DNA from: Octopus sinensis
Taxonomy: Eukaryota
Direction: 5' to 3'
DNA: 64,000 bases
Assembly (NCBI RefSeq): GCF_006345805.1
Contig: NC_043003.1
Coordinates: 107,260,001-107,324,000 of the forward strand
Part shown: positions 41,552 to 56,290 of the stretch, piece by piece
Position numbering within the stretch: position 1 is the first letter of the stretch
Layout of the letters: the number at the start of each line of letters is the position of its first letter
Made by a program: the position numbers and the translations under genes
Notes under the pieces: model-generated
Seen by the model: the letters and a program-made list of their open reading frames with translations, nothing else
Database searches by the model: none
What the model was told of the DNA's origin: nothing

Positions 41552-42142
41552 TTTTTGAAATTTTGAAAGAAAACCAAAAAAAAAAAAATAAAAATAAATC
41601 TCGGTCTCAAGTGTTTAAAACATATTTCTTTTCTTTTACAGAATCGTAATTCACGATTTTTTAAAATATGATAAAACCAAAATTTGTTTTGGTGTACTTG
41701 GTATTTTCCGACGCTATTCGACAGGAATGCTATTATAATTCATGTTCATAAAAAAATACGTATTCTTTAAAAACAATCAAAGTATTGTCAAGAAGAAATA
41801 AAAACTTAATGTTTTTGCTGGTATTTCACTTTTTTTTCGTTACTGTATTTTTGAAATTTTGAAATTTTTGAAATTTTGAAAGAACCCCCCCCCCCCACAC
41901 ACACACACACACCAAAAAAAAAATGAAAAAAAATCTCGATCTCAAGTGTTTAAAACATATTTCTTACGATTTTTAAAATATGATAAAACCAAAGTTTGTT
42001 TTGGCGTACCAGGTATTTTCCGACGCTATTCGACAGGAATGCTATTATAATTCATGTTCATTAAAAAAAATACGTATTCTTTAAAAACAATCAAGTATTG
42101 TCAAGAAGAAATAAAAACTTAATGTTTTTGCTGGTATTTCAC
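41552..42142. repeat. Direct tandem duplication (about 330 bp period) just upstream of the RPL35A TSS
   Basis: aaatctcg.tctcaagtgtttaaaacatatttctt ... ttttgctggtatttcac occurs at about 41597-41830 and 41931-42142. Confidence 0.92.
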
Positions 42143-42312
42143 CTTTTTTGGCGTTTTAATTTCGTCGAAGGCAGCATTTTCTTATCTCTTTCATTCATCG
42201 CTAATTACGGGCACCTGTTGACATTAATTGTGTTAATTGTGTACAGCGGTTGCTAACGACACTCTTCAGCGAAGAAGGCGCGCTTCAACATTTACCCAGA
42301 AACCAATTTGGT

Positions 42313-42338
42313 TCCTTTTCCGGTTACCATTGAAAGTG
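42313..42338 (+). promoter_or_regulatory. RPL35A: RPL35A TCT/5'TOP initiator and non-coding exon 1
   Basis: tcCttttcc matches the YYC(+1)TTTYY TCT motif of ribosomal protein genes (putative +1 at 42315). It is followed 24 nt later by a consensus donor G|GTGAGT at 42339 and lies 1.7 kb upstream of the first coding exon. Confidence 0.75.
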
Positions 42339-44072
42339 GTGAGTTGTATCTTTTACGTATGTCTCTTATTTTTCTTCATTATTCCCACTTTTAGGTACAT
42401 ATTTTAAATTAATTACAATTGCACATTATTGTATGAACGTTCGACTGTATAATAATTATGATTTAAATCAAGGATGGGATACAACAGTCTTGATTTAAAT
42501 CGATATTTCCTATCATTAACGTATAACACGCTGCCATCACAAATGATCAAATATGAATTTTTCTTCACTTCTTCGCTGATTTCTCGTTTTCCCCTCTTGT
42601 TTTACCAGATGTTTCTTCACAGATGCTTCTTTATTCATTAGTAATTATGTCCTATGCCAATTACTCCCCTATTATTTCAACAAATGCATGGAAATATTCT
42701 TATTTCTCGTCCACTTTGTAACCCCCCCCCTTGATATTTAATTATCCTTTATATTTCATTATTATTATTATTATTATTAATTGCACCTCGTGGTAAACTA
42801 TAATTAAATGTTGCTGTTTATGCAAAGTATTACCAGAGGTAAGGATTCGAAGTGGTTTGTAAATTGGCGAATAATGAGAAATGGTCTTCCTCTCTTCTTT
42901 GCTGTCTCAGAAAATGTATTTCTCTGCCATTCCTCATCTCCACCAGTTTATTAACTTCTTGGGTGGAATGTGTTAGGTTAAGGTTTATATAATGTACCTC
43001 TTCTCTTCACGGTTGATTTCAAGAGTTTATGTTCAGATGTAGGGGATAAATAAAGTACCAGTTTCCTTACTGTATTTCTGTTGAGATGCTCTGTGTTTCT
43101 TTCAGTTGATTTTAAATATAACAAAGAATTTAGTAAAATAACTTAGTTATCATTAAGCTAGTGTTAGGAACATAAATTGTGACTAAGGTTTGGTGGAAGA
43201 TTTTAATTCAAAACTTAGAAAACAAGACATTTATACTAAAGAGCCAGAGGTGGTATCAAAAGGGTTAAATCAATCATTTGTTAACCCTTTTGTTACCATA
43301 TTCTTGTTGAGATTCTCTATTACTTTAAATATAACAAAGAATGTAGTAAAACAACTTTAAATTGTGACTAAGGTTTGGTGGAAGATTTTAATTCAAAGCT
43401 TATGTTTAGCCCCTTGTGGGCAGTAAAGAAATATATGTTCAGATGTAGGGGATGTGTTTCATTGTGGAATAAAAATGGAAATCAATCTCGAACAGGAGAC
43501 GTACATTGAAAACTAACATTCCATAAAAATTAGATTTTTGGATTATGTTCGCCGTCGACTTGTTTATAGAAGCATGTGGAAGCGACATTATAGTTCTTCG
43601 ACTCTCGAAAGACAAACTGTTTTGCCCCTATAAATAAGATACCACGATGTATTCCTGGTACGACGGACGACTCGATAAAAAAGGGGACAAAATAAGAAGC
43701 ATATCCCATTGTTTCGGTCTGTTTGTCACATCAAGTATATAACACGTGCAGTTTTATAGAGTGACTGGAAGGACATAAATCTTCAATGTAGATTCTTTTT
43801 TTTTTAAACGGGATACGGTCAAACATGTATAAATTGGAAGATACTTGGGACGGATTCTAACGTTCCGAGCAAGGGATCTCTTCAGAGAAAGAAATGTCTA
43901 GTAGAACGGCTAACGAAATTATATCTTATATTCAGAATTATTCAGAGACTTTTAATTACCTGCTGATTTCTCTCTGAGAGAAAGCTATCCTATATTTATT
44001 TGTTTTTTTACTTATAATTACTGTTGTAAATAGATTTTGTTTTTAATCCCGTTTCCTTTCTCTCAGATTATC

Positions 44073-44146
44073 ATGTCGGAGGGTGAGGCAAAAGCAGCGC
44101 CAGCGGCCAAATCGAAAAAGAAGACCCCAAAACGAACACCTGGCAG
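44073..44146 (+). CDS. RPL35A: 60S ribosomal protein L35a (eL33), coding exon 1
   Basis: Acceptor tttcctttctctcag|attatcATG. Encodes MSEGEAKAAPAAKSKKKTPKRTPG+AG. Donor gtaat at 44147; phase 2 joins the next exon in frame. Confidence 0.9.
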
Positions 44147-44324
44147 GTAATATTATTTATGCATAGTCCATGTGTTCATCACTATATCAATATTTACAAT
44201 GTTAGGTGCAATTATTTTGTTTTCTGTTTCGATGTATCATTAAAGCGAATGAAAAGTTGCAAGACGAAATTAAACAGTCCAAACGGGATGTATTTAGTTT
44301 CTGTATAGCGATGCGATTGTATAC

Positions 44325-44650
44325 TTTTACTTGTTTCAGTCATTTGACTGTGGCCATGCTGGAGCATCGCCTTTAGTCGTGCAACTCGACTTATTCTTTG
44401 TGAGCCCAGTACTTATTCTATCGATCTCTTTTGTCGAACCGCTAAGTGACGGGGACATAAACACACCAGCATCGGTTGTCAAGTAATGCTAGAAGGACAT
44501 ACACGCATACACATATATACGACGGGCTTCTTTCAGTTTCCGTCTACCAAATCCACTCTCAAGGCTTTGGTCGGCCCGAGGCTATAGCAGAAGACACTTG
44601 CCCAAGATGCCACGCAGTGGGACTGAACCTGGAACCATGTGGTTGGTAAA
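44325..44650 (-). mobile_element. SINE family A in RPL35A intron 2
   Basis: Near-full copy, antisense to the gene. Confidence 0.9.
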
Positions 44651-45130
44651 CTCCTGTATATGTATTATTTCTGGAAATTTTACCTTGTAAGCGAACATGA
44701 ACGGAAGGGTGAGGATTAGGCGGTGCACAGGATTTTTATAATTTTAGTAAATAACAGTTGAACATAGGACAAATAAAGCTGTTTGCATGTTGCTAAAATT
44801 CTTGCATTCTGATCAGATGAAACATTTGCATCATTATTTTAGCTGCTGGTCATTTGTGTTTTGCTGTGGCCAATATTCTTAAAACGAGATCCTTGGAGTC
44901 TTGTTCTGTTATTATTATTCACCCATAACAGAATTTAGGTTTTTTGGCTTAACTCACCAAATTAAAGTTTTGTCAATTAGACTGGGAGTCAGATTTCTAT
45001 GTTCCCATAGCAACAATTTTAAACTAAGCTTTGAAGACTACGTGATGTTAGTATATTCAAGAAAATCATGTATGAAATGATGCACATGGCTGCCCAATAG
45101 CCCTCAGACCACACCTTGCTGTTGTATATA

Positions 45131-45271
45131 GGTACTTGTATCGCAGGCGTAGGCAGTCGATCCTACGAGCTGACTGGCGCGTACACGATATATACTTGTA
45201 TGGCACGTCCCCGATTGGCTAGCACGGACGCGTGTGTGCGCGAACCGGGACCACTCTGCGATACAAGTACT
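45131..45271. mobile_element. Short Merlin-type MITE in RPL35A intron 2
   Basis: TIR ggtacttgtatcgcag / ctgcgatacaagtact; flanks ttgtatata / ttgtatatg; shares the subterminal ccgggaccactct with the 40192 element. Confidence 0.7.
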
Positions 45272-45272
45272 T

Positions 45273-45303
<31 letters not shown>

Positions 45304-46359
45304 CCATCGGGTTGACTATGCTAGGAGGCTGCACCAGACTCCAATCTGATCTGGCAGTGTTTCTAAAGCTGGGTGCTTTTTGCATGCCACTGGCACAGGA
45401 GCAAGTCAGGGTGAGGGGGCAGGCAGCGACCACATTCAGATGGTGCTTATTGCATGCCTCCAGCATGAGGGCCAGTCAGGCGACACTGGCATCTGTCACT
45501 ACAATTTCCGTTTTGATTGTGGATTGATATTATTTTAATGCTGATGTACTTGAGCAAAGCATGTCGCCCAATGATCCAAAGGTACTTTTTTTTAAGTGGG
45601 CTGGTTATGTGACATTGGTGTAGGCTACAATTGATCTCACTTTACTTGCTGGGTCTTCTCAGTCACAGCATATCTCCAGGGTTCTCAGTCTTTCGTCATT
45701 TCTTCTGTGGGGCCCAACATACAAAGGTCATGCTTCACCACCTCATCCCATACCTTAGATCTCTCTCTACCACAGGTTCTTTCCACTGATTGGCAGTGAT
45801 ACGTCTTCACACAGCTCTCTTCATCCATCTGTAGTACATGACCATACCAGTGCAGTTGTTTCTCATGCACATCACATCTGATGCTTCTTATCATCATCAT
45901 CATCGTTTAACGTCCGCTTTCCATGCTAGCATGGGTTGGACGGTTCAACTGGGGTCTGGCAAGCCCGAAGGCTGCACCAGGCCAGTCAGATCTGGCAGTG
46001 TTTCTACAGCTGGATGCCCTTCCTAACGCCAACCACTCCGTGAGTGTAGTGGGTGATTTTATGTGCCACCGACACAGGTGGCAGACGGCCACGCCCGGAT
46101 GGTGTTTTCTTATGTGCCACCGACACAGGTGCCAGACGAGGCTGGCGAACGGCCACAATCGGATGGTGTTTGTTACGTGCCCACAGCACGGAGGCTAGTC
46201 GATGCGGTACTGGCTACGGTCCCGTTCGGATGGTTTTCTTATGTGCCACAAGGATACAAATTCCATTGATGTTCATCTATTTTGGTTTGATTTGATTTTC
46301 AAGATTTCTCTCAGGTCGCTTACACTGTCGTGTGTGCACACTGACATCACACATCATGC

Positions 46360-47643
46360 TAGCTTCATGTCCCAATCCATGCGGTCTTTTCCCGTTATAC
46401 TTTTTATCTGTGTAAACATCGAAGTTTACACGGTATCCTGTCTCCAATTCACAAACTTCCCATTCCTTGATCCCCATTTAGTAGGTTTAGCAGGCATGTA
46501 CTGCTAAAAATGTACTCTGCCCTTATAGCCTATCATGGTTTCATCTACACTGAGATTTTTCCCAGGTAAATAAATAGTTTTATAATTATGTACGAGTAAA
46601 TCAATTACAGGACGTACTTTGTGCAGGGGATCGTAGTTTGGGTCGTTTTTGCTGGGGGCATTGGCATAATCAGTTAAATGCAAATACTGAGATATTTTCA
46701 AATACCTTGTCTGTATGGTTCGATCCCGCACTTAATTCAGTCTCCAATCAAATTCACAAAGGTTTGATTGGTATATTATGAGTGCTACAGCATTATTGAC
46801 TTAATTAAATGCAGCTTTTCTAATAAACGCTGTCAGAATTAAATTCAGACAATTTTCTCATTTTGTGAGGTGGCGTACCTGCTCCAATACTTCATTAGAA
46901 AGTTGTCTGTTGGGCTTCGTGGGGCGGGGTTGGATGCTCGAAATATATGGATCGCCATACCTTACATCGGGTCTCCAATAGTTCCACATTCGAGGAAGCT
47001 GTTTAACTCCAAGCATAATTTTAATTGCGAAAAATGCTCTCATTTCTGCAGTATTAGTTGGCTGCCATAGCGGATCGTTTCTTCCTCGGACAGAAATTAA
47101 GTGTTGCGCATATTTGTTCATTTCCTCTGCAACATTTTCAAAAGAACTTTCAGGCAAAAATAAAAATAGATAGTCCAGTGGTTGAGCAACAGGAGGTAAA
47201 TTATGGCGAGGACCAGTGTTTTCTGTAAAATCAGAAATTGTGACTGGTGTCGTAATTTTCGACCATGTTGCCTTGTTTACAATATTGTTTTCATCAGTTT
47301 CGTTATGGAAATCTTCGTCCGACGAGTAATCACTGATATCAATATCAGGTTCATCTGAAGTCAAAATGCTTTTCTTTTCATTGATATCTTCAAAGTCGGA
47401 ATCGATACTTGCTGACGTCATTTCTTTCACAACAAACATATACACATGTGGTCTAAACAATTTCACAGTATTTATGCTTGAATAAAGGCGGGAAAGGCTC
47501 CATCTTGCATTTTCTCAAAGCTACGAGAATTTAATGTGACTTATTTTTTTTTGTGATTTCATAGAGCTGTCTGATACAGCCGGTTTGAACAAGTAAAGGG
47601 GAATTAATTTTGGCCAGTTACGGCCGGTTTGAACACTAAAGGG
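46360..47643 (-). mobile_element. piggyBac transposon fossil (PGBD4-like transposase) in RPL35A intron 2
   Basis: Terminus ccggtttgaacactaaaggg|tgaa (degenerate TTAA) with a subterminal repeat at 47580. Motifs PLDYLFLF, EMRAFFAI, YLHL, KVRPVID, LSVDETMIGYKGR, YMPAKPTKWGIK. Internal stop, 3' truncated and interrupted at 46711-46933. Confidence 0.93.
46727..46854 (+). ncRNA. Box H/ACA snoRNA-like RNA, copy A (RPL35A intron 2)
   Basis: Hairpin gcactta/tgagtgc plus ccaatcaaa/tttgattgg; H box ACAGCA (46787-92) 15 nt below the upper stem. Second hairpin with gcagc/gctgt; ACA (46849-51) 15 nt below it. 128 nt, sense to an RP host gene. Confidence 0.72.
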
Positions 47644-47808
47644 TGAAACGACAATGATGTCTGCTGTGGAAGCAATTCAGTAAGGACCGGCAGGTAAAAG
47701 GATTATCATAGATGGAACTACCAATGTGAAATGTTTTTTAGGCTTTAATGTTAGTTGTGTCAACATTAATTTAGTCAGAAGTTATATTGTTGTTGTTATC
47801 TATTTCAG

Positions 47809-47961
47809 ACTCTATGTTAAAGCTGTGTTCACAGGCTACAAACGTGGTTTAAGAAACCAGTATGAGCACACTGCACTCTTGAAGATTGATGGTGTTTATA
47901 AAAGAAATGAAACTAGTTTTTACCTTGGCAAAAAATGTGCTTATGTATACAAGGCAAAGAG
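47809..47961 (+). CDS. RPL35A: 60S ribosomal protein L35a, coding exon 2
   Basis: tttcag|A CTC TAT...; (R)[50 protein letters not shown], classic eL33 sequence; donor gtgagc at 47962. Confidence 0.97.
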
Positions 47962-48224
47962 GTGAGCTTTATCTTTTTTTCTTTTAAAAAACGACAGGTG
48001 GGGGTGTTTATGTAACACTGTATTGGCCCCTACATCGTCGTGGAGGCCCCTTACAAAGTGGTGCTTTCTGCTCATGCATGCCGCTCGGCAACTGTACGAG
48101 TCCACCTGATGTTTGTGGAGCTTGTACTTTTGGTATTCTGCATTCCCTACTCTCCACCCTCAAATTAACGCATTTTAAATATGCTCAGAAGAACTCGCTG
48201 TAAGGTCTCTGTATGGTTCGATCC

Positions 48225-48352
48225 CGCACTTAATTCAGTCTCCAATCAAATTCACAGTGTTTTGATTGGTATATTATGAGTGCTACAGCATTATTGGCTT
48301 AATTAAATGCAGCTTTTCTAATAAACGCTGTTAGAATTAAATTCAGACAATT
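48225..48352 (+). ncRNA. Box H/ACA snoRNA-like RNA, copy B (RPL35A intron 3)
   Basis: Near-identical to copy A; H box ACAGCA 48285-90, ACA 48347-49. Differences are in the apical loop, an A-U to G-U stem swap and one pocket base. Confidence 0.78.
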
Positions 48353-50672
48353 TTCTCATTTTGTGAGGTGGTGTACCTGCTTCAATACTTCATTAGAAAG
48401 TTGTTTGCTGGGCTTCGTGGGGTGGGGTTGGCTGCCCCACAATATAGAAGCTTCAGTGACCTTCATCCTAAAGCGTGACTTTAAGATAATTAACATACGA
48501 CAACTGGTGATTTGGTTTCTAAATCTCTGGTGAGAACCATTGGGTGTGGTTGAGTTCTTAAGGACCTGAATTGCTATCATCATCATTTAATGTCTGTTCT
48601 TCCTGGCACGGGTTGGATGGTTTGAAAGGAACTGTACCAGGCTTCATTTGTCTGTTCTGGTGTGAGTTCTACAGCTGGATGCCCTTCCTAATGCCAACCA
48701 CTTTACAGTGTGTGTGTTGGGTGCTTTTTACATGGCACCATTACCAACATCATCATCAAAGCAAAATCTCTCAACTCGGAAGTGGGTGGCTTTGTATCAG
48801 TTGAGAGATTAAGTGTATAGAGGTGTTGGGACGGGTATCTTGCTGTAGGGTGGATGCATTGATAGACCAGTTAGAAGGGAAGGGACTAGTGAGAGAGATG
48901 GTAGATTGGGAGAGGTAACTCAAGAAGCTGCTGGGTGGTGCAGTGTCTATAAATCTCCGGATTTTTGGAGAAGGTTCAGATTTTGATGAAATGCAGTTAA
49001 TTTTACATGCTGTATCATCATCATCATACATTTACTGCATGAGTTTTTGATGTTCTTTAGGAATCTGTTTTGTCGCTTTCACCTGCCCAGGTGTGTTGTT
49101 GAATATCGAAGCTTGTAGGTGTTTTCACTTACATTTTCAGGATCTCAATCTCCGTCTTGGGTTTCTTGCCTGGAAGTTGCACACTTGGCATCAGGAAAAT
49201 CATTCCAAGATATGCCTTCAGTTCCTCCAGGTGTTTTGTATTGTCCAGCATATATGTGCTTTTATCGTTTACTTGTTGCACCCATCAGGTTACGGTCATG
49301 CTGGTGCACTGTGTTATAGAATTTTTGTTGGTCTCTTGTACAAAGCCACTGTGTTACATTCTCTTTCCATCTACCAAATCCACTCACTCGGTGCACTCTG
49401 TGAGTCAGAATGTGGTTGGGAGACGAGCTTCTTGTCTCACACCCATCCCTGCCCCTATTTCTGCAGAAATGTTTGTTTTTTCCCCCCTCTCTATCCTCAT
49501 GGAAGCATCATCATTAACTATATGGATGCTCCACCCCAAGAAGTCCTGGTATCATTCACACTGAAATACCATTCTAAGTGTTTCCTTGAAAACCAAGCTC
49601 TCTTTCTATAAAAGTGACTGGTTTTGTATTTTGGCACAAGGCCGCCAATTTTATGGACGCTGTTCCTTATCTTGTTGACCATGGCGGAATTTGAACTCAG
49701 ATTGGAGACGGTTAGCATGCCACTAAACGTCCTCACCAGCTTCTGAACCAGCCACATGCAAGATTGAAGGGGAATAAAAAAGAAAGATTTTTGGTAAGCG
49801 GTTCCCATGTCAGCCACATGGTTGAAAGATCAATCGCACAGCATGATAGATGGTTATATATCTTCTATTATGGCATTGGGCCAACCAATAGCTTTGAGGT
49901 TGGGTTTTGATGAGAGGAAAGGAAAGAAGGCTCTCACATGTGTGTGTGTGTCTCTGATCCTGTAGCGTAGTGGTTTCTTAAAAGAGGTCAACTGAATATG
50001 AACCCAGGTCAATTTCTTTGACTAAAAGAAAGATGAAGCGTAGATTCTACAAGCTGGGAGTCTTGTAAAGTTTGGCTGGGCTCACCTGGACCGCCCTTTT
50101 CGTACTGCATTGATATGTGGTTCCTTATTGTAGAGGTCTTAGAGGATTAAGTTGCTGGTGGCAATGGCGCCTGCCTGGCCCTCGTCCCGCACTCCTCAAA
50201 GCCCTAAAACTCCTATACCAGGGCCTCACCACCAGGTCCAGTTTCAGGTCTTTCCCAGGACCCTCCATACCTCAACAGCAAATTACAGCTGCAGCGTATG
50301 CACTATCGAATGCAGTTGCTCTCCCAGTGGGGCATTTGTCAAATCTTCAGGATGGATTTTTGGGCCACAAGCTGAAGTATGACTTTGGCTGCTGGAATGG
50401 ACAGGAATTCACCAGTCCCACTCTCCCCTTGTGAGTGCCACTGAAAGTACTGCAAAGGACTATTTTCTGAGGGACACTTCCACAATCGGTTATAAATATG
50501 CCTGAGACAAACAAATAAATGAAGTATTATGCTGCTCCTTATAGTGTTTACCTGTTCGTCAGCTAATTATGAATTAACCAGATTTCGTTGTCTCTCAATT
50601 GATAACTTGTAATCAAGAGTTCAATTCCACTTTTTGTCTTTGTGTGTCTCTTGTACCCCGAAAGGATTACCA

Positions 50673-50803
50673 TGCACTTAATCAGGCCTACAATCAAAGG
50701 GTCACTGTTTTGGTTGATGGAATAATAAGTGCCACAGAAAATTGGAATTTTTCTATAGTGCAATCATCTAAGTGGTGCCTGTCGCATAAAATTCCAGACA
50801 AAT
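50673..50803 (+). ncRNA. Box H/ACA snoRNA-like RNA, copy C (RPL35A intron 3)
   Basis: gcactta/taagtgc plus caatcaaag/ttttggttg; H box ACAGAA 50734-39; second hairpin tggaatttt/aaaattcca; ACA 50798-800; 131 nt. Confidence 0.78.
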
Positions 50804-53233
50804 TTAAGTGTAAATTTTTTTTTTTATCTCCTTCCATGATTGTTGTAGGTGCAAGGTTTGCCTGTGTGGTGAGTGCAATCACCACCGTTTGACATCTGGT
50901 GTTGGTGTATGTATGTAGCTTAGAAGTTCAGAAAGGCCAACTGATGGAATAGGCATCAGGTTCAAAAACCAGTAATTACAGGGTTTGCTTCGTTCCATTA
51001 AAATTCTGTGTTTGTTCTGATAATTAAATATCAAGCGTCGTTTTACTAAAATGTCAAGAGCAAGAACTCTGGAGCTTTGGAGAAGGTTAAGATTTTGGTG
51101 AAATGCAGTTAATTTGGCATGCTGTATCATCATCATCATCATACATTTACTGCATGAGGTTTTGTTGTTCTTTAGGAATTTGCATTGTCAGTTTCACCTG
51201 CCCAGGTGTGCTGTCGAATATCGAAGCTTGTAGGTGTTTTCACTTACATTTTCAGGATCTCAATCTCTGGCTTGGGTTTCTTGTCTGGAAGCTGCACACC
51301 TGGCATCAAGAGAATCATTCCAAGATATGCCTTCAGTTCCTCCAGGTGTTTTGTATTGTCCAGCATATATGTGCATTTATCATTTACTTGTTGCACCCAT
51401 CAGGTTACGGTCATGCTGGTGCACTGTGTTATGGAATATTTTTTGGTCTCCTGTGCAAATCCACTGTGTTACATTCTCTTTCCATCTACCAAATCCACTC
51501 GCATGGTGCACTGTCAGTCAGAATGTGGAACAATGTGGTTGAGAAACGAGCTTCTTGTCTCAAACCCGTCCCTGCCCCTATTTCTACAGAAATGCTTGTT
51601 TTTTTTTCCCCCTCTCTATACTCATGGAAGCATCATCATCAACTGCCTAGATGCTCCGCCCCCGAGAAGTCCTAGTGTCATTTATACTGAATTGCCATTT
51701 TAAATGTTTCCTTCAAAACCATGCTCTCTTTCTATAAAAGTTACTGGTTTCCGATTTTGGCACAAGGCCGGCAATTTTGGGGAGGTTGGTCCTTGTTTTG
51801 TTGACCATGGCAGAATTTGAGCTCAGAACGAAGAGACATTTAAGATGCCACTAAACGTCCACACCAGCTTCTGAACCAGCCACGCGTAAGATTGAAGGGT
51901 AATAAAAAAGAAAGATTCTTGATAAGAGGTTTCCATGTCAGCCACATGGTTGCAAGATCATTCGCACTGCATGACTGATTGGTTAAATACCATTAGAAAG
52001 GGTATCAGGCTGTAGGAGCTTTACCCAATCAGATTGGCGCTTGGTGCAGTCAAACTGTCCAACCTATGCCAGCATGGGAGGTGGACGATGTAACAGTGGC
52101 CCAGTTAACAAGATCATCATTTAGCATCCGCTTTCCATGCTGGCATGGGTTGGATGACTTTTCTGGAGCTGGTAAGCTGGATAGCTGCACTTGGCTCCAG
52201 TCTGAATTTGGCTTGGTTTCTATGGCTGGATGCCATTAGGTGTCACTATCATGGAAGCATCGTTTTCCAGTTATGTGGTCTTGGGTTCAGTCCCACAGCA
52301 GACCACCTTTTGTTGTAGTCCTCTGTTTAGAAAAACTTTGGCAGTGGATTTCGTAGGTGGAAAGTGAAGTGTTTGTGTGTGTGCAGAGCCTGGTCTTGAG
52401 AGGTTTTTGTTGTACATAAGCAATGTTGTTGTTTGTCTGTGGTGTTCCATGTAAAACATTGTCTGGTCCTTAGAAAATATTGCTTCCGTAAATTCCATCT
52501 CACACATGCAGGTACGGAAAAAGTGGACTTTAGATCGGTTGGGGGTTGGGCTTTGTCAGTTTTCTAATTGATGATATATCTTAGTTGTCATTCAGCACAG
52601 GTGGAGAGTTCGTGTTCAGGGTTCCACGTGCATATACGCTGCACTTTAGGTCAATCCAGCAGTTGGGGAACTGGAACTCTGTTGGGTGTTGCTTCTGGGA
52701 ACAATATTGGCTAAGTTGTCCAGCACTCCTCAAAGCCCTAAAACTCCTATACCAGGGCCTCACCACCAGGTCCAGTTTCAGGTCTTTCCCAGGGCACTCC
52801 ATACCTCAACAGCAGATTACAGCTGCAGCGTCTGCACTATCGGATGCAGTTGCTCTCCCAGTTGGGCATTTGTCAAAACTTCAGACCGGGTTTTTGGGCC
52901 ACAAGCTGAAGTATTACTTTGGCTGCTGGAATGGACAGGAATTCATCAGTCGGAACCAGCCCCCACCCTCCCCTTGTGAGTGCCACTGAAAGTACTGCAA
53001 AGTTATTTAGTAGCAAAGGACCGTTTTCTGGGGAACACTTCCACAGTCGGTTATAAATATGCCTGAGACAAACAAATAAATGAAGTATTACGCTGCTCCT
53101 TATGGTGTTTCCCTGTTCGTCAGCTAATTATAAATTAACCAGATTTCGTTGTCTCTCAATTGATAACTTGTAATCAAGAGTTCAATTCTACTTTTTGTCT
53201 TTGTGTGTCTCTTGTACCCTGAAAGGATTACCA

Positions 53234-53362
53234 TGCACTAGTCACATACTCAATCAAAGGGACACTGTTTTGGTTGATGGGGGGGTAGTGCCACAGAAAA
53301 TTGGAATTTTTCTATAATGCAATCATCAAAGTGGTGCCTGTCGCATAAAATTCCAGACAAAT
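53234..53362 (+). ncRNA. Box H/ACA snoRNA-like RNA, copy D (RPL35A intron 3)
   Basis: gcacta/tagtgc plus tcaatcaaag/ttttggttga; H box ACAGAA 53293-98; same 3' hairpin as C; ACA 53357-59; 129 nt. Confidence 0.78.
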
Positions 53363-53762
53363 TTTAAGTGTAAATGAATTTTTTTTTTTTTTTTTTTTAA
53401 CACCCTTCCATGATTGTTGTGGGTGCACTGTTTGCCTGTGTGGTGAGGACAATCACCACCGTTTGACATCTGGTGTTGGTGTATGTATGTAGCTTAGAAG
53501 TTCAGAAAGGCCAACTGATGGAATAGGCATCAGGTTCAAAAACCAGTAATTACAGGGTTTGCTTCCATTCAATTAAAATTCTGTTTGTGCTGATAATTAA
53601 ATATCAAATGTCGTTTTACTAAAGTGTCAAGAGCAGGAACTCTGGAGCTTCCGGGTGAGTGTCTGGTCAATGCAAATGTGATTCGTTGTTCAGAATGTTC
53701 CTTCTGCAAAGTATAATCTACGAATATGTTTTGTTTATTATTTGTAAATATTTTCATTGTAG

Positions 53763-53910
53763 GAAAACAAGAATTCCAGGCACCAAAACTGCAGGTCACA
53801 TTCGTATAATATGGGGCAAAGTCACCCGTCCCCATGGAAATAGTGGTGCTGTACGTGCAAAATTTAAGAAGAATCTACCTGCTACCGCTATTGGAAGACG
53901 CATCCGAGTT
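53763..53910 (+). CDS. RPL35A: 60S ribosomal protein L35a, coding exon 3
   Basis: tgtag|G AAA...; (R)[49 protein letters not shown]; donor gtaagt at 53911. Confidence 0.97.
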
Positions 53911-54041
53911 GTAAGTGAAGAATGTTTTATATGTTGCTATTCTTGGCATTAGTTGATTTGGAGATGCTTGAAAGAGGAGCGGGTTCGGAAATTTTGGTGG
54001 GGGCTGAACAAGATGTGTACAAAGATTATTGAGAGTTAGAT

Positions 54042-54420
54042 AGGCGTAGGAGTGGCTGTGTGGTAAGTAGCTTGCTTACGAACCACATGGTTCCGGGTTC
54101 AGTCCCACTGCGTGGCATCTTGAGCAAGTGTCTTCTGCTATAGCCCCGGGCTGACCAATGCCTTGTGAGTGGATTTGGTAGACGGAAACTGAGAGAAGCC
54201 TGTCGTGTATATATATATGTGCGTGTTTGTACCCCTAGCATTGCTTGACAACCGATACTTTTACGTATGTTTACGTCCCCGTCACTTAGCGGTTTGGCAA
54301 AAGAGACCAATAGAATGAGTACTGGGCTTGCAAAGAATAAGTCCCATGGTCGATTTGCTCGACTAAAGGCGGTGCTCCAGCATGGCCGCAGTCAAATGAC
54401 TGAAGCAAGTGAGAGAGAGA
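54042..54420 (+). mobile_element. SINE family A in RPL35A intron 4
   Basis: Full copy, sense to the gene. Confidence 0.9.
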
Positions 54421-54989
54421 GAGTTCCTGAGTTTAGCATGATGGGTCGGTCCTCAGCCCTGTCCCTTATCAGTCCAACGTGCCATCACAGTGGAGTTAAA
54501 CACTGGATGTGTAAGGGGAACTATATATCAATTGTTTGGGAGTGACACTACTTCACACGTCTCTCCTCATCCATCCGTATTACATGACCATGCCTGTGCG
54601 AACGTCTCTCTAGCACGCCACGTTCTTTATGTCCAGCATTTATTGGATAGGAGATGGCCAGTTTAAATGCTAAGGGTTTACAGGTTTTGTCTGGTTCCTA
54701 GTAACAACCATTCATTAATGCACTCAAATAGAAATTGTAGTACTGGACGATGCTCGTGTCACTTGACTGGCTCCCTGTGCTGGCGACACATAAAAAACAC
54801 CATCCAAACGTGGTTGATACCAGCATGGGAAAAATGGGTGTTAAGCGTTTGTGTGGTCCTAAAAGTTAATAGGGCCCACTTGACATTCTTGTGTTTGATT
54901 TGTCCCCTCTCACAGTCACCATGTAATTATTACCCATAAGTAAAATATTTTCTTTGGGAAGTTTCAATTTGTTCTTTCTTTTCTTTCAG

Positions 54990-55013
54990 ATGTTGTATCC
55001 ATCAAGAATCTAA
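54990..55013 (+). CDS. RPL35A: 60S ribosomal protein L35a, last coding exon
   Basis: ttctttcag|ATG TTG TAT CCA TCA AGA ATC TAA = MLYPSRI*, the conserved eL33 C-terminus. Confidence 0.96.
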   Translation: MLYPSRI

Positions 55014-55025
55014 AGACATGTAAAA

Positions 55026-55031
55026 AATAAA
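55026..55031 (+). terminator. RPL35A polyadenylation signal (second AATAAA at about 55126)
   Basis: AATAAA 12 nt after the stop codon, followed by a T-rich tract; a short 3'UTR is typical of RP mRNAs. Confidence 0.75.
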
Positions 55032-55284
55032 ATGTTTTCCAATCTATCTCTTCTTTTCTTGTTTCTTCTTGGCACTAAAATGCCTGTGATGACGGCAGGT
55101 TTCTGGTTTTCTTTATTTCATCAAAAATAAAATTCTGGTTTGTTTGGAGCTGATAATCACATCTTTTATCCATCTCAGTGCCAGTATTGCTGCCGGTCTC
55201 TCTCTTCCATTTAGTGTCCCTCTTCATTATCATGATAGTTTTCTGTAACAGAACCATTGTTTGGTTTTCTGCAGGTTGATATGA

Positions 55285-56290
55285 AAAGCATAAAGTCCAA
55301 GTTAATGGTTCGCTGTCCGACGTCTCCACTGCGATCAGTGGTGTGCCTCAAGGTTCAGTGCTTGGGCCCTTATTGTTCTTAGACTTCATAAATGTCTTGC
55401 CCGACGACCTCGTGCAACACACACTTCCATTTGCCGATGATGTCAAACTGGTTGCTCCTTGCGGTGATGTGGATGATCTTCATCGATGCCTCAACCAAGT
55501 TTGGAGATGGTTTAACGAATGGGACCTGTGTCTGAACGTGTCAAAGTGTTGTCATCTGCCTTTTGACTCTTCTCTTGCAACTCAACTTGATTTCGAGCCA
55601 GGTCGTCTACTGCTAGAGAGGACCGACCAGGTAAAGGACCTGGGTATCTTGTTGGATTCTTCCTTTTCGCCTTCGGCCCAGTGCGTCCATACTGCCAACA
55701 AAGCATGCGGAGTTATGTTTTTGATTCAACGGTCATTCGGAATGCTCAGAGCAGCCATATTCCTACCGCTCTGTGTCCCACTGGTGAGACCCCATTTTGG
55801 TGTACCGGATTCAAGCCTCTTCTCCTTATCTCCTCAAAGACATACATCATCTCGAAAGAGTCCAGAAGCTGGCTACCTATATAGTTCTTGGTCTCAAGAA
55901 TTTGTCTTACAAAGAAAGGCTGAAGGCACTCGACCTTTATTCTCTAGAAAGACGACAACGCTGTGGTGATCTCATTGTTGCTTACAACATCACAACCGGA
56001 AAGTGTAACCTCTCGAAAGAGCTGTTCTTCACTCATGCTCCAGAGTGTCGGCTGCGGGGTCATTCCGAAAAGCTCTATCTGCGACGATTTCATCTCAATC
56101 GAAGGAGAGGGGCTTTCTCCGTTCGGGTTGCGGATCCGTGGAATAAGCTGCCGGACGAGATAGTGAAGATGCCGACGACCGCTCGGTTCAAAGTCTCTCT
56201 TGACCCGAAATGGCATGAACACCACCCTGTACATAACTCCATGTCACCCTACATGGCCTTGCTTTTTGAGCCAAGATATTAAATTAACTT
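55285..56290 (+). mobile_element. CR1-group LINE, 5'-truncated RT and 3' end
   Basis: KVQVNGS..SGVPQGSVLGPLLFL.FIN..FADDVKL..KDLGI..LERVQKLAT..LRGHSEKL..FSVRVADPWNKLP; frameshifted. Confidence 0.92.

Follow-up and report, generated by a model that had tools for sequence, protein, structure and literature searches.

H/ACA snoRNA-like units duplicated within the RPL35A introns of Octopus sinensis and a predicted guide pocket for 18S rRNA

Four H/ACA-like units in the introns of RPL35A

The 64,000-nucleotide (nt) stretch of Octopus sinensis DNA analyzed here (the window) carries RPL35A, a ribosomal protein (RP) gene, and within the introns of this gene four units that resemble box H/ACA small nucleolar RNAs (snoRNAs). 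Here, we describe the anatomy, position, copy number, and duplication history of these units as observed, together with their complementarity to ribosomal RNA (rRNA). The host gene was recognized from two exons matching Pfam family PF01247, and its exon joins were seen at contig ends in sequencing run X7. All four units are sense to RPL35A; unit A lies in intron 2 (before 47811), and units B, C, and D share intron 3. The exons and units are as follows.

44068 to 44147, plus strand: first coding exon of RPL35A, with the ATG at 44074 (read from the sequence; spliced contig end in X7)
46728 to 46854, plus strand: unit A, H/ACA snoRNA-like, intron 2, within a 239-nt copy of B and its flanks (46710 to 46947)
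47811 to 47961, plus strand: RPL35A exon flanked by units A and B (PF01247, E value 5e-20)
48226 to 48352, plus strand: unit B, H/ACA snoRNA-like, intron 3, the likely source of A
50674 to 50803, plus strand: unit C, a paralog, intron 3, with hairpin-1 pocket strands at 50681 to 50690 and 50717 to 50725
53235 to 53362, plus strand: unit D, tandem duplicate of C, intron 3, with pocket strands at 53241 to 53250 and 53277 to 53284
53765 to 53911, plus strand: RPL35A exon 3' of unit D (PF01247, E value 1e-17)

The original prediction had reported these four units from inspection of the window, and their places, strand, motifs, and pocket strands read as it had claimed. The left and right strands of the hairpin-1 pocket are attcagtct and tatatta in A and B, atcaggccta and atggaataa in C, and gtcacatac and tggggggg in D. 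In every unit a 5' stem, an internal loop, an upper stem, an ANANNA box, a second hairpin, and an ACA follow one another in that order, giving the two hairpins, hinge, and terminal ACA of the box H/ACA class. The 5' stems begin at 46728 (A), 48226 (B), 50674 (C), and 53235 (D); the H boxes occupy 46787 to 46792, 48285 to 48290, 50734 to 50739, and 53293 to 53298, and the ACA boxes 46849 to 46851, 48347 to 48349, 50798 to 50800, and 53357 to 53359, respectively. With the 3' end assumed to lie 3 nt past the ACA, the units measure 127 nt (A and B), 130 nt (C), and 128 nt (D).

Predicted folding was consistent with this anatomy, to a degree that differed among the units (z-scores of −4.0 for A, −2.0 for B, −2.1 for C, and −1.1 for D); the fold of D alone was not significant, since 23 of 200 shuffles were equally good. 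Hairpin 1 was paired in 95% of 64 cells versus 19 to 47% when the frame was slid, and the RNAalifold consensus of the four sequences contained two-sided changes in 2/19 pairs. Hairpin 2 folded at −15.5 kcal/mol in C, −11.9 in D, −8.8 in A, and −8.6 in B; in A and B it is weak and nearly without an open pocket. No Cajal body (CAB) box was evident in the apical loops when the folds were read by eye against the consensus. A crude H/ACA scan of positions 42000 to 55100 recovered three of the units (A, C, and D) but not B, along with two further matches, one per strand. The plus-strand match, an H/ACA-shaped stretch of unrelated sequence at 43527 to 43587 in the first intron, may be due to chance.

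Two further features accompany the host gene. A pyrimidine-rich stretch at 42315 to 42339 runs up to a GT donor and, by eye, is likely a noncoding first exon of the terminal oligopyrimidine (TOP) type. Directly 3' of RPL35A, at 55280 to 56279, are reverse transcriptase (RT)-like reading frames, which by their motifs are likely the remnant of a long interspersed nuclear element (LINE).

Copy number and duplication history

A pattern built from the scaffold and independent of the pockets matched five places in the 2.7-Gb genome and none in a reversed control; no further copy was found within the window. DNA searches gave three places for C and two for B. The original prediction had named a high-copy dispersed repeat in random orientation as an outcome that would refute it; because five copies are present genome-wide, the unit is neither such a repeat nor a high-copy snoRNA-derived retroposon, with the proviso that these searches may have overlooked diverged copies. 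At B, C, and D, contig depth was at the single-copy level. A pattern scan of metagenomes returned 22 loci (best E value of 0.12 with a hairpin-1 model), none convincing by eye, and these were rejected as chance.

The units within RPL35A form two near-identical pairs, A/B and C/D. Thus, the family of four that had been proposed consists of real units, not four independent ones, three of which share a single intron. Three features, one of them on another chromosome, bear on how the copies arose.

46277 to 47514, minus strand: what is left of a piggyBac-like transposase reading frame in intron 2, with the copy carrying A inserted into it
48955 to 53650, plus strand: tandem segmental duplication in intron 3 carrying C and D (48955 to 51077 and 51067 to 53650)
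G000:C1:170900258-170900371 (L003, 1501 to 1626, minus strand): copy E, on another chromosome, 89% like C across 113 nt

Units A and B are 94% identical across 239 nt, flanks included. A is probably the inserted copy because the segment that bears it splits the transposase remnant, with positions 2 to 75 of PF13843 on one side of A and positions 81 to 143 on the other. The remnant belongs to a repeat family, as judged by its high contig depth; we presume the family to be piggyBac from its motifs, its Pfam name being DDE_Tnp_1_7. A was thus likely derived from B and inserted into a dead piggyBac-like element. The duplicated blocks around C and D are 2 to 2.5 kb long and 87 to 89% identical in their aligned parts, with gaps.

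The 5' stem of copy E is absent from the assembly, together with a portion of its 5' pocket strand, and the missing part lies between what appear to be two short direct repeats. E retains short intron flanks and has no A-tail past the end of homology; no host gene was evident within 10 kb of it. Given this missing tail and the intron flanks that extend beyond the RNA ends in A, C, D, and E, all four appear to be DNA-level copies.

These data also bear on whether the units are snoRNAs at all, or pieces of a transposon or of a small repeat rich in hairpins. The latter origin would fit the repeat-rich introns, the position of A in a transposase remnant, and the lack of an Rfam match. However, a repeat would not be expected to give five copies in the genome with four of them sense in one gene, single-copy depth at B, C, and D, boxes at canonical distances, and two lineages that pair with the same 18S uridine (see below). 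We therefore regard a repeat origin as very improbable. Rather, the H/ACA-like anatomy, the location in RP gene introns, and the local expansion put forward in the original prediction were borne out by the boxes, the folds, the PF01247 matches, and the copy counts.

Candidate targets of the pockets

Candidate targets were taken from the same genome and comprised the 18S, 28S, and 5.8S rRNAs and the small nuclear RNAs (snRNAs) U1, U2, U4, U5, and U6, in total 2,197 uridines. Pairing was scored with a purpose-made pocket scorer, neither snoGPS nor RNAsnoop. A 1667-nt 18S (L006, G000:C1618) and a 3313-nt 28S (L010, G000:C6303) were left out as likely foreign because they have 45% GC and are only 75 to 87% like the other copies. 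Far from the 2.6-kb, 64% GC 18S on large contigs, these two sequences likely come from a second organism whose DNA entered the assembly, perhaps that of a parasite. Among the remaining genes, the 28S copies (L011, L013, and L059; G000:C18) were 85 to 96% identical in blocks, and the compared 18S copies were 97 to 99.8% identical. About 20 U6 copies form a tandem array (G000:C1:141926002-141953129) with a spacing of 1.1 to 2.5 kb, and U1, U2, U4, and U5 are likewise clustered.

For hairpin 1 of A/B, the pocket pairs with 18S on both sides of a uridine at a distance from the box within the usual 14 to 16 nt. At a box distance of 15, 18S U383 ranked first with 3 + 8 pairs (1/60 shuffled sets scored as high), and at a distance of 14, the neighboring U384 ranked first with 5 + 7 pairs (0/60); at a distance of 16, nothing stood out. 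The paired stretch of 18S was identical in 10/10 further 18S copies. Copy E points to the same site. Its 3' pocket strand, which is unlike that of A/B, pairs with the 18S site at 9/10 nt and on its own ranked U383 10th and U384 4th of 2,163 sites. With the last four letters of the 5' strand added, U383 led the 169 sites that were scored; when the complete 5' strand across the deletion junction was used, it was fifth of 178. When A and E were scored jointly, the best site was U383 (score of 24; shuffled maximum of 22; 0/300 as high).

U383 corresponds to column 210 of the Rfam model of eukaryotic small-subunit (SSU) rRNA. To either side of U383, the sequence of this 18S departs from that consensus, and the A/B and E guides appear to follow the local 18S sequence, as would be expected of a guide tracking its target. 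By local context, a mapping made without aligning the yeast RNA, U383 falls on yeast pseudouridine (Ψ) 211. Human SNORA31, labeled 18S U218, appears to address the same helix region of 18S, with no claim of orthology. Yeast Ψ211 is guided by snR49, and the RNase T1 fragment around it matches the SSU consensus at this place (PMC5062969). U384, if it is the true site, is the neighbor of yeast Ψ211.

The remaining pockets gave less. Hairpin 2 of A/B had no target above chance in the scanned rRNAs and snRNAs. For hairpin 2 of C/D, 28S U5865 ranked first with 3 + 9 pairs; an offset fit to a human modification table (20/25 positions; next best, 14) places it at human 28S 4344 and not at human Ψ4323. 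In E, the 5' strand of this hairpin is altered in a way that breaks the pairing to U5865. If the 28S candidate were real, the two pockets might have been divided among the copies, a weak suggestion. Stretches of hairpin 2 in A/B that run from stem into loop (46813 to 46821 and 48311 to 48319) are complementary to the 28S segment that the 5' strand of C/D hairpin 2 pairs with; they do not lie in pocket geometry and, by eye, likely match by chance.

At the 18S site, hairpin 1 of C and D forms only 2 pairs on the 3' side, and it had no site above chance in the rRNAs or in U1, U2, U4, U5, or U6 (38/40 and 36/40 shuffles scored as high). An snRNA target of the kind expected for a small Cajal body-specific RNA (scaRNA) was not found among these five. 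Perfect genomic sites numbered 0 for C and 0 for D, which is weak evidence given that imperfect and spliced targets are not covered by such a search. Nothing convincing emerged from further rRNA copies; a score of 28 for C against U-rich 28S in two of them consisted mostly of G-U pairs and was not accepted. The units had been thought to be possible orphan guides, a view not supported for A/B, with its match to the genome's own 18S at U383/384, or for E, which points to the same uridine. A clean hit of every pocket to one known rRNA site had been named as the outcome that would make this an ordinary family; the convergence of A/B and E on one 18S site approaches that outcome.

Pocket change in C and D and comparison with known snoRNAs

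The pockets are far more divergent than the scaffold, as the original prediction had noted. Between C and D, 7/17 aligned pocket positions differ versus 40/764 in the flanks (Fisher's exact test, P = 2e-5), 2/62 in hairpin 2, and 1/26 in the upper stem; aligned separately, the two pocket strands differ at 7/10 and 5/7 positions. The 3' pocket differs at 5/7, 6/8, and 6/8 positions among C, D, and E (E differing from both C and D at 6/8), compared to 2 to 3 of 61 in hairpin 2. In D, one pair of the lower stem is gone on both strands, and the helix is thus retained. Because five of the changes are adjacent, however, they may represent one event; adjacent changes are not independent, and the P value overstates the case if single events were responsible. 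A possible local template was located for one of the strands.

50942 to 50951, plus strand: exact 10-nt copy of the stretch spanning the 3' pocket strand of C (50715 to 50724)

This copy lies 227 nt downstream of the original; 14/1068 local 10-mers have a second copy of this kind. No local template was found for the 5' pocket strands of C or D (best, 7 nt), and the 3' pocket strand of D is a G run of low information.

To these differences can be added contigs from 4 of 24 sequencing runs, in which the 5' pocket strands were readable within repeat-rich introns; the statements that follow are limited to the contig differences listed. A further C-type form (50639 to 50770), absent from the assembly, was present in all four runs, with a 5' strand more like that of A/B and E. 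Its start in X2 and X3 falls about where homology to E begins, so it may be an undeleted E allele or an unassembled copy. In X17, a more distant run, none of the contig depth here includes base 50690 of the C pocket. The pocket of C looks recently derived because contigs of X17 and X7 carry forms closer to A/B and E.

The original prediction saw in these units a retargeting array. On such a reading, selection would have fixed new hairpin-1 pockets in C and D for uridines in RNAs beyond those scanned, such as mRNAs or minor snRNAs, while keeping the scaffold. The clustered differences between C and D, the rapid change of the 3' pocket among C, D, and E, the intact boxes and stems (including the two-strand loss of a pair in D), and the further pocket forms among the listed contig differences of relatives are all consistent with that proposal. 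However, neither C nor D finds a site above chance in the scanned RNAs, a convincing one in further rRNA copies, or a perfect one in the genome, the nonindependence of adjacent changes weakens the statistical case, and the 3' strand of D is a low-information G run. Retargeting was therefore not demonstrated, and we consider it quite unlikely; clustered mutation is the likelier cause of the C/D pockets. A link to RNA recoding, raised at the same time, was not found. More speculatively, hairpin 1 of the C type could be a hot spot in which pocket strands are replaced in blocks on a fixed scaffold, so that guides would differ among sister copies and related octopus species and some would be selected for non-rRNA targets; this would be a pseudouridylation guide being reprogrammed naturally inside a species complex, a scenario we hold to be improbable.

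Alternatively, the A/B type, perhaps B alone, may be the sole functional type, with C, D, and E being unexpressed or decaying snoRNA pseudogenes that arose via DNA duplications. C and D indeed lie within large duplicated blocks, and conservation of their hairpin 2 does not clearly exceed that of the flanks (2/62 differences versus 5%); E has neither a 5' stem nor an evident host nearby, and A sits inside a transposon remnant. Nevertheless, C and D retain both boxes and well-formed stems (−15.5 kcal/mol for hairpin 2 of C), and hairpin 2 of C, D, and E differs throughout from that of A/B yet keeps its fold, suggesting past selection. This alternative as a whole seems unlikely to us, and it is compatible with the 18S target predicted for A/B.

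We conclude that one H/ACA snoRNA gene was probably copied within the RPL35A introns, with hairpin 1 as the predicted guide of 18S U383 (or U384). A number of observations weigh against this conclusion. Under looser geometry the A/B site still ranked first, but 11/40 shuffles reached its score, so A/B alone is suggestive; E alone was not significant under that geometry (24/40 shuffles as high). The joint test of A and E was devised after the site was known, and the four 5' letters are common to them by descent. Both U383 and U384 remain candidates, depending on box distance. Two-sided compensatory change was seen in 0/13 hairpin-1 pairs counted across five sequences. Contigs cannot show RNA ends, and discrete molecules of ∼130 nt are a prediction. 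The Rfam search that the original prediction had proposed for the units gave 0 matches at the gathering threshold in the window; seven matches at E values of up to 10 in 42000 to 55100 were weak and unrelated, with no H/ACA family among them. The 28S U5865 candidate is weak, since 8/60 and 12/40 shuffles match it (13 to 30%); human 28S 4344 is absent from the portion of the human table examined (PMC6182160), and its inferred counterpart in yeast, 2795, from the yeast modification table. Change in the C/D pockets was ∼8-fold faster than in the flanks, an excess that plain drift does not account for. Finally, three copies within one intron depart from the usual arrangement in animals, in which an intron mostly holds a single snoRNA, although some clusters occur in Drosophila (PMC7038934). 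Processing of three units from a single intron would require endonucleolytic cleavage between them or would give one product per lariat.

On the proposed mechanism, which extends established H/ACA biology to this locus, the units would be released from the RPL35A introns and assembled with dyskerin/Cbf5, NOP10, NHP2, and GAR1, and the unpaired uridine beneath the upper stem, 18S U383 or U384, would be isomerized. A and B retain the 18S pocket, and C and D have lost the pairing; in E, the 3' strand is still complementary to this 18S site, and the 5' stem is missing from the assembly. C and D may hold a hairpin-2 function alone (with 28S U5865 as a weak candidate) or may be decaying. Their pocket blocks most likely arose via a few multibase events, such as templated copying and G-run slippage, in a redundant and unconstrained pocket. 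The overall pattern suggests that in C and D an ancestral 18S pocket became redundant and was then overwritten.

If the proposed 18S guide is correct, the locus encodes an H/ACA snoRNA family that lacks annotation, and a specific 18S Ψ can be predicted for this lineage, whose 18S is long and divergent and has no modification map in the literature found. It would also offer a small and recent example in which a guide was duplicated and its pockets were then lost or divided, useful but ordinary. For specialists, the feature of interest is the roughly eightfold faster change of the C/D pockets relative to neighboring intron DNA; were this due to true selection for new targets, the birth of snoRNA targets would be testable among sister species. 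No report of these RNAs appeared in the literature searched, a search to which subscription papers and genome annotations were external.

The units resemble known intronic box H/ACA snoRNAs in their hairpin-H-hairpin-ACA order, their length of ∼130 nt, their sense placement in RP gene introns, and, for A/B, a bipartite pocket 14 to 16 nt above the box with a predicted rRNA target. They differ in matching no Rfam family, in three of them lying in one intron, and in the almost pocketless hairpin 2 of A/B. Hairpin 1 of A/B/E, in the U383 geometry, is predicted to act at the aligned position of yeast 18S Ψ211, as snR49 does; the likeness is limited to this common site, with no claim of sequence homology, and snR49 guides other sites too. 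The comparison column of the yeast paper gives no modification at the Ψ211 site (PMC5062969).

Duplicated guides have precedents in the literature. Cis-duplicated intronic snoRNAs with guiding gained or lost are described in chicken (PMC2653536), H/ACA copies in the RPL13A introns of a sponge (PMC3412847), and snoRNA gains, losses, and target switches in fungi (PMC5824354). As in chicken and sponge RPL13A, the copies here occupy neighboring introns of one host, and changes may create or destroy guiding; unlike those duplicates, in which the guide regions are mostly the conserved part, the hairpin-1 pockets of C/D are the fastest-changing part. The snoRNA-derived retroposons of platypus likewise reach new places, as E has done (PMC2653536), whereas five copies rather than many are present here, and A, C, D, and E look like DNA-level copies. 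Set beside these systems, the RPL35A units probably make up a duplicated snoRNA family of an ordinary kind, apart from a single oddity.

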